Assembly (NCBI GenBank): GCA_041662245.1
Contig: JBAZSW010000002.1
Span: 11,835-75,834, forward strand
Reading direction: 5' to 3'
Length of the DNA stretch: 64,000 nt
From: Parcubacteria group bacterium
GTDB taxonomy: Bacteria; Patescibacteriota; Minisyncoccia; Moranbacterales; UBA9337
Under the pieces are notes generated by a model, which was given only the letters and a program-made list of their open reading frames with translations, was not told the DNA's origin and ran no database searches. Of this stretch, positions 13,062-16,406 are shown one piece after another. The position numbers were made by a program, and so were the translations under genes. Each line of letters starts with the position of its first letter. Position 1 is the stretch's first letter.

Positions 13062-14339
13062 ATGGATATCTTAACAGGAAGTATTCCAGTTGTATTTTTA
13101 AATAATATTTGGCAAACTTTAACTGTGGCTTGGTTTTTGATTTTGCCCCCTCTTTTTTATTGGTTATTTAAGCTGTTGTGGATGGATTTTGTCCAAGGGA
13201 ACTATTGGGGAAAGACGGAATGGGTGATTTTGGAAATAATTCCTCCAAGTGATATAGAGGAAACCCCACAGGCCATGGAAATGATTTATGACGGACTTTC
13301 GGGGATTACCAAGGGTATCAATGCTATCGAAGAATTTGTAAATGGAGAAACAAGGATGTTCCTTAGTTTTGAATTAGTAAGCAAAGAAGGAGAAATTCAT
13401 TTTTATGTTAGAGTCGCCAAGTTTTTTAAGCATTTGGTTGAATCTAATATTCATGCGCAGTATCCCACTGCTGAAGTAAGAGAAGTTCCTGATTACGTTA
13501 ACGATGTGCCTAGAGTTATTCCTAATAAAAAATGGAATCTTTGGGGAACCGATTTTAAACTTACCAAACCGGATCCATACCCAATCAAAACTTATAAATG
13601 GTTTGAAGAAAGTGTTACAGGTAAGGCGCTTGATCCTTTGGCGACAATCATAGAGAGTTTAGGTAAAATTGGTCCCAAACAATATTTTTGGTTTCAGCTA
13701 ATCCTTACTCCTTTCGGAGGAGAAGAATATGATACAGGAAGAGCTATCGTGGATAAAATAGCACAAAGAGCCAAAGAGCCCCAAAAGGGAATTTTGGAAA
13801 TGATTTTCAATGATTTAAAAGACGTTTTCCTGAGTGTCTTTAGTGGTATTGCTGGTAATCCAGTAGAATTTGCTGCTTCCAAAGAAAAAGCAGCAGATGC
13901 TCCATTAGAATTTAAGTTAACTCCCGGAGAGAAAGAAGTTTTGAAAGCGGTTGAAGAGGGAATTGGCAAGAATGCTTTTAGGACAAAAATGAGAATGATT
14001 TATCTAGGGCGTAAAGAAGCTTTCAATAAAGTAGTGTTAGGTTCATTTATTGGAGGATTAAATCAATTTACGGATGTTAATCTTAATAGTTTTGCACCAG
14101 ACAATGATAGCAAAACTTTTGCCTTGCATCTTTTTGTAGAGGCACGAACTAAATATCGTCAGAGAAAAATTTTAAGAAGATATCGCTCCAGAAATAGAGA
14201 TGGCAAAAATTTTTTCTTAAATACATCCGAAGTAGCCACAATTTATCATTTGCCCAATATGTCTGTGATATCCCCAGCTTTTAAAAAGATAGAAACTAAA
14301 ACAGGAGCAGCTCCCGCTAATTTACCAATAGAACAATAA
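13062..14339 (+). CDS. membrane-anchored hypothetical protein (2 N-terminal TM helices + about 350-aa soluble domain), partner of the downstream ATPase
   Basis: Hydrophobic N-terminus (IWQTLTVAWFLILPPLFYWLFKLLW), no recognisable catalytic motif. The stop is 3 nt before the next start. Confidence 0.55.
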   Translation: MDILTGSIPVVFLNNIWQTLTVAWFLILPPLFYWLFKLLWMDFVQGNYWGKTEWVILEIIPPSDIEETPQAMEMIYDGLSGITKGINAIEEFVNGETRMFLSFELVSKEGEIHFYVRVAKFFKHLVESNIHAQYPTAEVREVPDYVNDVPRVIPNKKWNLWGTDFKLTKPDPYPIKTYKWFEESVTGKALDPLATIIESLGKIGPKQYFWFQLILTPFGGEEYDTGRAIVDKIAQRAKEPQKGILEMIFNDLKDVFLSVFSGIAGNPVEFAASKEKAADAPLEFKLTPGEKEVLKAVEEGIGKNAFRTKMRMIYLGRKEAFNKVVLGSFIGGLNQFTDVNLNSFAPDNDSKTFALHLFVEARTKYRQRKILRRYRSRNRDGKNFFLNTSEVATIYHLPNMSVISPAFKKIETKTGAAPANLPIEQ

Positions 14340-14342
14340 AAT

Positions 14343-16406
14343 ATGCAGGATATAACATTTTTTGCTAAAACCAATTTTAGAAACCAAAATGTAAAATTTG
14401 GTATTAAAACTTCTGATAGACAGAGGCATATGTATGTGATTGGAAAGACGGGTATGGGAAAAACTACTCTTTTAGAAAATATGGTGATGCAAGATATTGC
14501 CAATGGCTACGGAGTAGCATATATTGATCCACATGGTGATACAGCTGAAAAACTTATCAAAGCAATACCGGCTAATAGAATTAATGATGTGGTTTATTTT
14601 AACCCGGCAGATACTGAATTCCCAATTGCTTTTAATATTCTCGAATCGGTAAGTGAGGATAAAAAACATTTAGTGGCCTCGGGAATGATGGGAGTTTTTA
14701 AAAAGATTTGGCCCGATGTTTGGAGCGCGAGGATGGAATATATTTTAAGCAACGCTCTTTTAGCTTTATTGGATTATCCCGGATCGACCATGATGGGGGT
14801 AAACAGAATGATGAGTGACAAGAAATATCGTCAACGAGTTTATGAAAAAATCAAAGACCCAGTAGTGAAGGGTTTTTGGATAGATGAATTTGAGACTTGG
14901 GAGGATAGATTTAGAAAAGAGGCTGTAGCTGCCATCCAAAATAAGGTAGGTCAATTTTTATCTTCTTTTTTGATAAGAAACATAGTGGGGCAAACAAAAT
15001 CTACTATTAATATGCGAGATATTATGGATAATAACAAGATTTTGATTGTAAATCTTTCCAAAGGAAGAATCGGAGAAGACGCAATGCGACTTTTGGGCGG
15101 GATGATAGTTACTAAGATTCAATTAGCGGCGATGGAAAGAGTGGACATGCCAGAAGAGGAAAGAAAGAATTTTTATTTGACAGTGGATGAATTTCAAAAT
15201 TTCGTAACGGAATCCTTCGCTAATATTTTATCAGAAGCAAGAAAATATCGCTTGAATCTTTTAGTGGCGCACCAATATATTAGTCAATTGGAAACAGACA
15301 CCAGTAGTGTCGTGAAGGACGCTATTTTTGGTAACGTAGGAACAATTATTTCCTTTCGAGTAGGAGCGGAAGATGCAGAGTTTTTAGAAAAAGAATTTGA
15401 GCCGGTTTTCATGATGAATGACATTGTTAATTTACCTAAATATAGTATTTATTTAAAATTAATGATTGACGGAATTGCCGGTAATGCTTTTTCTGCTACA
15501 GCGCTTCCTCCAATTGATATTACAGGAACAACAGAAAATGCTGAAAAAGTAATTCGAATTTCAAGAGAAAGATATGCTAAAGATAGAAAGGATATAGAAG
15601 AAAAAATTGCGCGTTGGACTGGAATGCTGACTAAAGAAAGTGTTGCTAAAATGGAGCCAAAAAAAGTAGAACAATCCTATGCTGGAAATACTCAAAACTA
15701 CAATAATACAGTCAGAAATGCTAGAAATACAATAGTGATAAAGCCAAAAGAGAACTTAACGCCCAACGTAGTTGCTAATGCTGAGATTAGAAAAGAAATT
15801 ATTAATGATGATAAAAATGTAAAAATAAGTGAACCGGTTGTGGTCAAAGAGAAGCAAGAGACGTTGTTAAGGGAAAGTCAACCAGTGATAATAGCGCCTC
15901 CTACAGGCAAAGAAGAAATTAAAGTAGAAGCTCCAGAAATAATTAAGGTTGCTGATAATGAAAAAGAATTATTTGATTCAGAGTGTGATACTTGCGGAGA
16001 AAAAATTCAAATCCCTTTTAAACCAGATGGCCAACGCCCTACATTTTGTAAGGATTGTTTAAAAGATTATCAACGAGCGATAGCAAGAATTCAAAATGAA
16101 GAGCTTGAAAATAAGAGAAGAATAGCTGAAGATGATAAAAATTTTGATAATATCAAAAAGGATGTTTCTAAAAAAGAAGATGTTTATAACAGACCTAATA
16201 TTCAAGGAAAAATAGAGACTCAGCAAAGAGTTTACTCTCCTAAGGAAAAGCCGTTGAGTTTGTCCCAAACCACCTTCATGGCTCCGAAAAAAATAAAGAA
16301 TATGAACGCAGGCAGAGAGCTTTTAAAATTAAAAGAAATAATTGAAAAAAACAATCAAGCAAATAATCAAAATAAGAATATTGACTCAGAAGTTAAAGCA
16401 GTGTAA
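14343..16406 (+). CDS. soluble VirD4/TrwB/TraG-type (FtsK-HerA superfamily) P-loop ATPase with a C-terminal C4 zinc ribbon and a K/E-rich tail
   Basis: Walker A VIGKTGMGKTTLLENM, Walker B YLTVDEFQNF, and a downstream ARKYRLNLLVAHQYISQL sensor/arginine-finger block typical of type IV coupling proteins. No TM segment. CDTCGEKIQIPFKPDGQRPTFCKDC zinc ribbon at nt 15981-16070. Confidence 0.65.
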   Translation: MQDITFFAKTNFRNQNVKFGIKTSDRQRHMYVIGKTGMGKTTLLENMVMQDIANGYGVAYIDPHGDTAEKLIKAIPANRINDVVYFNPADTEFPIAFNILESVSEDKKHLVASGMMGVFKKIWPDVWSARMEYILSNALLALLDYPGSTMMGVNRMMSDKKYRQRVYEKIKDPVVKGFWIDEFETWEDRFRKEAVAAIQNKVGQFLSSFLIRNIVGQTKSTINMRDIMDNNKILIVNLSKGRIGEDAMRLLGGMIVTKIQLAAMERVDMPEEERKNFYLTVDEFQNFVTESFANILSEARKYRLNLLVAHQYISQLETDTSSVVKDAIFGNVGTIISFRVGAEDAEFLEKEFEPVFMMNDIVNLPKYSIYLKLMIDGIAGNAFSATALPPIDITGTTENAEKVIRISRERYAKDRKDIEEKIARWTGMLTKESVAKMEPKKVEQSYAGNTQNYNNTVRNARNTIVIKPKENLTPNVVANAEIRKEIINDDKNVKISEPVVVKEKQETLLRESQPVIIAPPTGKEEIKVEAPEIIKVADNEKELFDSECDTCGEKIQIPFKPDGQRPTFCKDCLKDYQRAIARIQNEELENKRRIAEDDKNFDNIKKDVSKKEDVYNRPNIQGKIETQQRVYSPKEKPLSLSQTTFMAPKKIKNMNAGRELLKLKEIIEKNNQANNQNKNIDSEVKAV

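Follow-up and report, generated by a model that had tools for sequence, protein, structure and literature searches.

What does a coupling protein do on a chromosome that holds it among housekeeping genes? The question is raised by a 64,000-nucleotide (nt) stretch of contig JBAZSW010000002.1 from a Parcubacteria group bacterium of the Moranbacterales (the window, in what follows), on whose plus strand a 425-amino-acid (aa) membrane protein and a 687-aa ATPase are encoded 3 nt apart, downstream of a gene for a DNA-binding protein. We refer to the DNA-binding protein, the membrane protein and the ATPase as the products of genes 1, 2 and 3. A first-pass annotation of the window had described genes 2 and 3 as a split coupling-protein-like module, and both open reading frames (ORFs) are indeed present as described. 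We found by homology that genes 2 and 3 each correspond to one half of a single type IV coupling protein (T4CP), like those with which conjugative plasmids of single-membrane bacteria are equipped, the gene being split at the linker in Patescibacteria. We regard the identity of the pair as a split T4CP with a VirB4-like N-terminal domain as very probable. The best explanation overall, to which we give a probability of roughly 0.55, is that this split T4CP serves as a membrane-tethered motor feeding the phylum's type IV secretion system (T4SS).

The assignment of gene 3 was examined with family models and profile comparisons. In Pfam scans the ATPase matched TrwB_AAD_bind (4.9e-12; 45.9 bits against a cut-off of 20.5), TraG-D_C (6e-07; 29.9 bits against 22) and DUF87 (4.2e-06), all of them families for which the first-pass annotation had proposed a search, and NCBIfam added SXT_TraD (1.1e-16) and the VirD4-like CD1115 (7.8e-12). 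A profile of 68 family members, when aligned to R388 TrwB, matched residues 118-391 with its aa 22-316, 259 columns in all (E 5e-09, probability 95.9%), and a BLASTP match to pGO1 TrsK covers aa 28-352. The Walker A and Walker B motifs and the coupling-protein block that had been pointed out before were all located (Table 1), and the best-conserved block of the family, aa 281-300, reaches 0.97 among the 68 members. Gene 3 therefore carries what defines a T4CP, a nucleotide-binding domain homologous to that of TrwB/VirD4 with intact Walker A and B. No hydrophobic segment was found in the 687-aa protein, and hence no transmembrane (TM) anchor on its own chain, as had been proposed for this coupling-protein-like ATPase. 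The C-terminal tail holds a zinc finger, whose domain match spans aa 541-575 in the Pfam/NCBIfam scan and which is co-conserved in nearly all close homologues.

Similarity to other translocation ATPases was confined to the nucleotide-binding loop. Alignments of the ATPase profile with TrwK/VirB4, pGO1 TrsE and plasmid VirB4-like proteins were limited to the P-loop; the VirB4 model TIGR00929 scored 18 bits against a cut-off of 643, and no VirB4-type C-terminal ATPase domain was found in gene 3. FtsK_SpoIIIE scored 14.3 bits against a cut-off of 24 at the P-loop only, with no FtsK motor domain, multi-pass N-terminal anchor or gamma domain in gene 3. CedD of the archaeal Ced importers scored 26 bits against 600 in the P-loop region only, and the operon has no multi-pass channel gene. 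The Ced and FtsK comparisons made at first pass are analogies without sequence support. Taken by sequence comparison, the ATPase is identified as a VirD4/TrwB-type coupling protein, not as a VirB4 and not as an FtsK.

We ask next where the other half of the protein comes from. Gene 2 and all of its listed homologues belong to DUF8128 (PF26449) by precomputed assignment. A tblastn search of 72,556 plasmids with the ATPase matched 758 records, and several of the matching plasmid ORFs, at 810-910 aa, extended some 300-400 residues further at the N-terminus. When the DUF8128 profile was compared with such fused proteins by hhalign, it aligned with just this N-terminal part in the 883-aa protein of Shouchella clausii (NZ_CP012476, WP_248290882; probability 99%, E 5.4e-18, 86-426 to 40-316), the 913-aa protein of B. 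subtilis (NZ_OX419581, WP_144625398; E 1.5e-13, 98-424 to 55-313) and the 812-aa protein of Embleya (NZ_CP108778, WP_331738717; E 9.7e-05, 57-429 to 78-396). The ATPase profile was compared with two of the three, and matched the C-terminal half of the Shouchella protein at E 3.8e-34 and that of the Embleya protein at E 1.6e-48. These matches start at residues 326 (Shouchella) and 410 (Embleya), 10-14 residues past the end of the DUF8128-like part. The tail of the window DUF8128 protein (aa 386-425) aligns to this junction; because both profiles abut there, the tail corresponds to the inter-domain linker of the fused proteins. Since both halves are found contiguously in single plasmid proteins, the window pair reads as a clean split of one protein, in agreement with the split-protein idea of the first-pass annotation.

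The fused proteins of Bacillaceae and actinomycete plasmids thus share with the window pair the same two modules in the same order, with an ELAxxxHxP/PPxxxP linker before the ATPase. They differ from it in being single polypeptides, plasmid-borne and only 21-32% identical, and in having neither a sigma4/HARE helix-turn-helix (HTH) partner nor a zinc-finger tail. Their genes are adjoined by Replic_Relax and conjugal-transfer genes; the Shouchella and Embleya loci each encode a separate VirB4-like ATPase, and the B. subtilis locus has TcpD/TcpE genes. As a separate VirB4-like ATPase or T4SS genes stand alongside, the fused protein occupies the coupling-protein slot of these systems. No fused form longer than 900 aa was present among the top 150 matches of a DUF8128 profile search of 1.84 billion representatives, which returned 2858 clusters at 50% identity; these 150 were all about 400-560 aa long. 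A stand-alone DUF8128 homologue on a Pontibacillus megaplasmid was considered as a second natural split and rejected: its ORF ends in Walker A, and hence it is a frameshifted fused gene.

Two further relatives deserve mention on their own account. A DUF8128-tail/ATPase fragment with its junction in one reading frame, very like the Patescibacteria type, closes a contig that otherwise carries phage tail-like genes (L093:21-536, IMG/VR UViG_3300009537_000513). Either chimeric assembly or a mobile copy may explain it. The closest relative of the ATPase outside Patescibacteria, with 40.7% identity, is a stand-alone 396-aa ORF between transposases on a Sulfitobacter mediterraneus plasmid (L082:6986-8173, NZ_CP081110). 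It has no DUF8128 gene nearby and may be a transferred fragment.

The fold of the gene 2 product was then considered. The 425-aa protein had no match in NCBIfam, PADLOC or a Pfam copy lacking PF26449, and a PDB sequence search, with the protein alone or with a 74-sequence profile, gave no match. A first AlphaFold model from 20 sequences was poor (predicted local distance difference test, pLDDT, 64.5) and was replaced by one from 66 sequences (pLDDT 82.5; predicted template modelling score, pTM, 0.77). The top 14 Foldseek matches of this model were all TrwK chains, VirB4 being the best and only strong structural match of the soluble domain. Because no other P-loop ATPase appears in the structural match list, we attribute the match to the part of VirB4 outside its ATPase, the N-terminal domain, and the soluble domain is accordingly modelled as a VirB4-type N-terminal domain. 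The structure prediction proposed at first pass therefore gives a likely fold to a domain that had been described as of unknown function. Sequence similarity of DUF8128 to R388 TrwK, pGO1 TrsD or the Pfam model of the VirB4 N-domain was not detected, and the DUF8128 profile showed none to the N-terminus of a 708-aa Bradyrhizobium T4CP. A TraG-like protein of Sulfolobus pTC gave E 0.011 with the DUF8128 profile and was not accepted as a relative.

The first-pass annotation had given this protein two TM helices. One is more likely, because the protein has one contiguous hydrophobic stretch (about aa 10-41, Kyte-Doolittle), AlphaFold models one continuous helix at aa 10-51, and most relatives show one clear Kyte-Doolittle peak. 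Basic residues come after the TM helix in DUF8128 relatives; together with the basic helix within the soluble domain, this suggests that the large DUF8128 domain is cytoplasmic. The tail has low pLDDT and is, for that reason, probably an interface. Four DUF8128 homologues of 560-690 aa (P0209, P0233, P0264 and P0268) are extended at the C-terminus by a low-complexity stretch, at whose end the tail motif recurs as KKGAPPSNLPF. In these long homologues the motif behaves like a portable docking peptide.

Table 1. Features of the three-gene operon and its immediate flanks, in window coordinates.
Feature	nt	aa	Strand	Remarks
dnaB	10341-11720		-	Flank of operon, divergent from gene 1
Promoter-like site	11784..11811		+	TTGACA, 16 nt, TG-GATAAT; 11/12 matches; dnaB/HTH intergenic region
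Gene 1	11937-13001		+	354-aa DNA-binding protein, Sigma70_r4 and HARE-HTH
Sigma-70 region 4 (gene 1)	12015-12161	27-75	+	Pfam Sigma70_r4
HARE-HTH (gene 1)	12609-12791	225-285	+	Pfam; conserved C-terminal domain after it
Gene 2	13062-14339		+	425-aa DUF8128 (PF26449) membrane protein; by homology, N-terminal half of split coupling protein
Predicted single TM helix (gene 2)	13119..13184	about 20-41	+	Inside hydrophobic stretch aa 10-41; Kyte-Doolittle peaks
Soluble alpha/beta domain (gene 2)	13221..14246	54-395	+	Predicted VirB4 N-terminal-domain-like fold
Loop KPDPYPIKTYKWFEESVTGKALDP (gene 2)		169-192	+	Most conserved loop of soluble domain
Basic helix (gene 2)		362-382	+	Very basic, in soluble domain
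Conserved C-terminal tail (gene 2)	14217..14336	386-425	+	(E)ELATxxHxP and K(R/T)GxAPxNLP; invariant columns
Gene 3	14343-16406		+	687-aa soluble VirD4/TrwB-type ATPase
Motor domain (gene 3)	14343-15602	1-420	+	Followed by variable linker, zinc finger and tail
Walker A GKTGMGKTT (gene 3)	14442-14468	34-42	+	>=90% conserved in 68 family members
Walker B YLTVDEFQNF (gene 3)	15174-15203	278-287	+	
Coupling-protein signature ARKYRLNLLVAHQYISQL (gene 3)	15237-15290	299-316	+	
CxxC-x17-CxxC treble-clef zinc finger (gene 3)	15984..16058	548-572	+	C-terminal tail; PF23477 1.3e-10, TIGR04272 3.6e-11
groES	16481-16762			Other flank of operon, past gene 3

Conservation of the pair was assessed across genomes. 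In a one-genome-per-species scan at least 572 species representatives carry the DUF8128 protein, and the listed records with an informative title are all Patescibacteria (Moran-, Azam-, Yanofsky-, Nealson-, Komeili- and Paceibacteria groups). Many TPA_asm records of metagenome-assembled genomes (MAGs) with the operon (e.g. L006, L009, L011 and L065) are titled 'uncultured Bdellovibrionales' or 'Candidatus Saccharibacteria'; such titles seem unreliable as taxonomy. We fetched the neighbourhoods of 80 Patescibacteria species-representative loci. Lack of co-conservation of the upstream gene, which the first-pass annotation had named as an observation that would speak against it, was not seen: the ATPase lies directly downstream of the DUF8128 gene in 78 of the 80 loci, a pairing far beyond chance that bears out the membrane protein as its partner. 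The sigma4/HARE-HTH gene is upstream of DUF8128 in all 77 loci with enough upstream DNA. Clustering of all flanking ORFs left the HTH, DUF8128 and ATPase genes as the only conserved neighbours, and the HTH gene is part of the same conserved unit as genes 2 and 3. In two loci (L073:2561-7505 and L076:6001-10535) the HTH and DUF8128 genes are followed by nusA-tig-clpP in place of the ATPase, which is presumably elsewhere in these genomes.

The ATPase core is much the most constrained of the three: its pairwise identity across classes has a mean of 69% and a minimum of 53% (60 loci), the other two proteins have means of 42% and 39%, and divergence of the three is correlated (r 0.66-0.79). Flanking genes are housekeeping genes that vary with lineage (dnaX, pheST, secA-secD-secF, mnmA, alaS, divIC, htrA and nusA-tig-clpP), in keeping with the chromosomal, lineage-conserved setting that had been suggested. 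The dnaB and groES flanks are core genes, as noted at first pass; their presence beside the operon is common only to the closest relatives of the window. In Paceibacteria-like lineages (L071:55-7245, also L061, L079 and 17 loci with secDF) the operon stands directly downstream of secA-secD-secF on the same strand, an adjacency that may be plain synteny or may hint at a link with membrane translocation. A search of 2.9 million viral contigs gave one partial match only. The operon is fixed in the Patescibacteria core chromosome as a domesticated three-gene unit.

Its organisation in the window agrees with a single transcription unit that includes the HTH gene, as had been claimed. A strong sigma-70-like consensus match in the dnaB/HTH intergenic region (Table 1) is a candidate operon promoter. 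No plus-strand terminator-like site was found between the genes or within genes 2 and 3, the sole plus-strand matches, at 12024 and 12191, both being inside the coding region of gene 1. Genes 2 and 3 are separated by AAT, between the stop codon TAA (14337-14339) and the ATG at 14343. The first-pass annotation had taken this 3-nt spacing as a sign of translational coupling. The spacing holds for the window; across loci the gap has a median of 25 nt (range -47 to 235), and since it is 20 nt or less in just 39% of loci, coupling was rejected as a general rule. A Parcubacteria/Moranbacteria MAG is 100% identical to the window, and its annotation names the product of gene 1 'HTH domain-containing protein', that of gene 2 'hypothetical protein' and that of gene 3 'type IV secretion system DNA-binding domain-containing protein'.

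In the gene 1 family both Sigma70_r4 and HARE-HTH are present in 27 of 27 sampled members, and the best-conserved parts are HARE-HTH and the domain after it. The sigma4 part matches region 4 of the primary sigma factor RpoD/SigA at E of about 1e-18; there is a weak match to the RNA polymerase delta subunit, and another to MzaA that is confined to the sigma4 region. Kinship of the family with Replic_Relax, or with a sigma-like protein of Pontibacillus, was examined and rejected, as the comparisons show no relation. The protein could be a DNA-recruiting adaptor, a regulator or a contact to RNA polymerase.

Putting these elements together, we propose the following mechanism for the split T4CP. 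The DUF8128 protein would be inserted in the cytoplasmic membrane, its domain on the cytoplasmic side, and its tail (aa 386-425) and loop (aa 169-192) are predicted to dock the soluble ATPase. It would thereby tether, and probably organise, the ATPase ring at the membrane; once assembled, the ring would spend ATP on moving a substrate towards a channel in the membrane. This substrate would most likely be DNA or a nucleoprotein complex, a protein being the other option, and the HTH partner, the zinc-finger tail or both may select it. As channel, the relaxase-less VirB4-type T4SS of the phylum, encoded elsewhere in most genomes, would be the most economical choice. VirB4 is found in 2417 of 3035 Patescibacteria genomes, in which relaxases are almost absent, and 5713 VirD4-type T4CP homologues are found in 2918 of the 3035, 148 of the 5713 near virB4 (Quinonero-Coronel et al. 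2025, PMC12102498). The nature of the substrate and the coupling to the T4SS are the parts of this proposal that we hold only tentatively.

Several observations weigh against feeding of the T4SS. The window contains no T4SS component or relaxase, and neither do the 80 loci: no other P-loop ORF of VirB4 or FtsK size is present in the 64 kb, and Pfam scans of 17 other window ORFs, among them most of those within 20 kb that had no other identification, gave only housekeeping or cell-envelope families or no match, with nothing VirB6-like and no relaxase family. The absence of T4SS partners that had been reported thus holds for the window; it does not hold beyond it, as 80% of Patescibacteria genomes encode a VirB4-type T4SS (PMC12102498). 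T4CP homologues are in turn found in 96% of genomes, compared with that 80% for VirB4, and in Southlakia epibionticum a t4cp homologue, which may or may not be the orthologue of gene 3, is non-essential where the T4SS genes are essential (PMC12102498). Replic_Relax, the companion of the fused proteins on plasmids, is no relative of the window's HTH protein, so the logic of substrate recruitment may differ. Finally, the all-alpha domain and ring assembly of the ATPase are inferred from alignment, the matches to TrwB 118-391 and to the TrwB_AAD_bind model apparently spanning the region of the inserted all-alpha domain.

These points feed the main rival, in which an exapted split T4CP works as a T4SS-independent, membrane-tethered DNA translocase, either for chromosome segregation or clearance at division in the manner of FtsK/SpoIIIE, or for DNA export or import, with the sigma4/HARE-HTH protein as a DNA-recognition subunit analogous to the FtsK gamma domain. 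The operon always stands apart from virB4 amid housekeeping genes, in some Moranbacteria beside divIC; its ATPase core is unusually constrained, and its layout of anchor, motor and HTH protein parallels FtsK. The excess of T4CP homologues over VirB4 points the same way, and the authors of that survey allow for exaptation (PMC12102498), although MAG incompleteness may account for part of the gap. The link to FtsK, however, stops in sequence at the P-loop, and the saccharibacterium TM7x has a separately annotated ftsK (PMC10768705), which also weakens the idea of the module as an FtsK replacement. In Southlakia the T4SS is essential and comEC is not, and competence relies on comEC and type IV pili (PMC12857230). 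An anchor of one helix offers no obvious channel, and no channel partner is encoded with it. We consider a T4SS-independent translocase unlikely, and a little more doubtful still in its most specific form, a phylum-wide membrane-tethered DNA or nucleoprotein pump made from a domesticated split coupling protein and targeted by the sigma4/HARE-HTH subunit.

Three other readings are less likely. Given its structural match, gene 2 might supply a VirB3-like helix and a VirB4-like N-domain to a split VirB4-like assembly ATPase that, with gene 3, energises assembly of a pilus or channel, and VirB3-VirB4 fusions carrying an N-terminal membrane segment are known. The ATPase half argues otherwise, as its profile follows TrwB over 259 columns and VirB4 proteins at the P-loop only; the Shouchella and Embleya plasmids moreover pair the fused protein, in the T4CP slot, with a separate VirB4-like ATPase, and DUF8128 lacks sequence similarity to TrwK, TrsD and the Pfam VirB4 N-domain. 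We judge this reading improbable.

Still less probable is a machine linked to RNA polymerase, in which gene 1 binds the polymerase in the way of sigma region 4 and the delta subunit, and the motor acts on transcription complexes or holds transcribed DNA at the membrane. Contact with RNA polymerase is what the two domains of gene 1 are best known for, in line with the sigma-factor and delta matches given above, and no neighbour of gene 2 is more faithful than gene 1, which is there even where no ATPase is adjacent (L073 and L076). Such HTH domains also simply bind DNA, however; gene 1 may be a mere operon regulator, and no T4CP is known to act on RNA polymerase.

An anti-phage defence module akin to MADS or HerA-type defence ATPases, suggested by a best PADLOC match to mad8 (E 2.7e-19; the MADS preprint text states no domain for mad8), weak HerA matches and the sigma4-limited match of gene 1 to MzaA, is the least credible of all. 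The unit is present once, in a syntenic core setting of housekeeping genes; its three proteins diverge in a correlated way over the Patescibacteria lineages sampled; it is nearly absent from viral contigs; and there is no other MADS or MZA gene, nor a complete MADS or HerA-type system in a variable defence island.

The split T4CP can be compared with several known systems. With TrwB (R388), VirD4 and TraD it shares a homologous motor domain containing Walker A, Walker B and the signature block; TrwB, by contrast, has two N-terminal TM helices on the same chain, no VirB4-like N-domain, and is encoded with a relaxase and a T4SS. The N-terminal domain of VirB4 (TrwK), with VirB3, resembles the DUF8128 domain in structure and in its membrane-proximal position ahead of a related ATPase, but shows no detectable sequence similarity, and the ATPase attached here is of T4CP type. 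The same layout is seen in pIP501 TraI with TraJ and in a pGO1 TrsJ-like protein with TrsK, where the gene immediately upstream of a TM-less T4CP encodes a small membrane protein, its proposed anchor; the proposal for TraI and TraJ is a precedent for a two-gene T4CP (2025 review, PMC12857230). These systems are plasmid-borne, and the likeness to the bipartite T4CPs is one of layout: the 154-aa pGO1 protein upstream of trsK, with which non-homology was established, has no similarity to the DUF8128 profile and no VirB4-like domain. EccE with EccC belongs to a different system, type VII secretion, with a much weaker similarity and none in sequence.

The orphan T4CP homologues of PMC12102498, near-universal and away from virB4, are very probably the same family as gene 3, and that study gives no account of a DUF8128 partner, an HTH partner, a split or an operon. 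We found no mention of DUF8128 or PF26449 in the literature searched, nor of VirD4, T4CP or FtsK in the main text of Wang et al. 2023. The gene 3 family was thus previously known; what appears undescribed in the searched literature is the operon with its DUF8128 partner and HTH companion, the VirB4-like fold of that partner, the homology with fused plasmid proteins and the split.

Other features of the window were recorded in passing. About 33% of its bases are G or C. Nearly all 2-kb bins have a positive GC skew, with a cumulative skew of up to 6.6; being positive almost throughout 1-64000, the skew places the whole window on one replichore. Genes for tRNA-Arg(tct) and tRNA-Lys(ctt) lie side by side at 28066-28216 on the minus strand. 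On the plus strand, 38681-41818 holds three genes in a row of about 330 aa each, with N-terminal hydrophobic starts, the first with a matrixin (Peptidase_M10) domain and the third YceG-like, and 54986-58886 encodes an ADP-forming acetyl-CoA synthetase-like protein (CoA_binding, Succ_CoA_lig, ATP-grasp_5) followed by RecJ (DHH, DHHA1, RecJ_OB).

Cumulatively, these results bear on Patescibacteria in the following ways: 1) the orphan T4CP of nearly every Patescibacteria genome now has a strictly conserved three-gene operon context, with an invariant DNA-binding companion attached to it; 2) DUF8128 gains a predicted fold, like that of the VirB4 N-domain, and a probable role as the missing N-terminal half of a coupling protein; and 3) one clade of coupling proteins appears to keep a VirB4-like N-domain, which bears on the divergence of the two T4SS ATPases. 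Patescibacteria make up a large share of bacterial diversity, and their relaxase-less T4SS is essential in the one species tested. Were the T4SS-free pump the true reading, it could be a device for handling chromosomes or exchanging DNA, specific to the phylum's epibiotic life with a reduced genome. For the split T4CP as a whole, the question of what the orphan coupling protein does can now be reduced to three genes.

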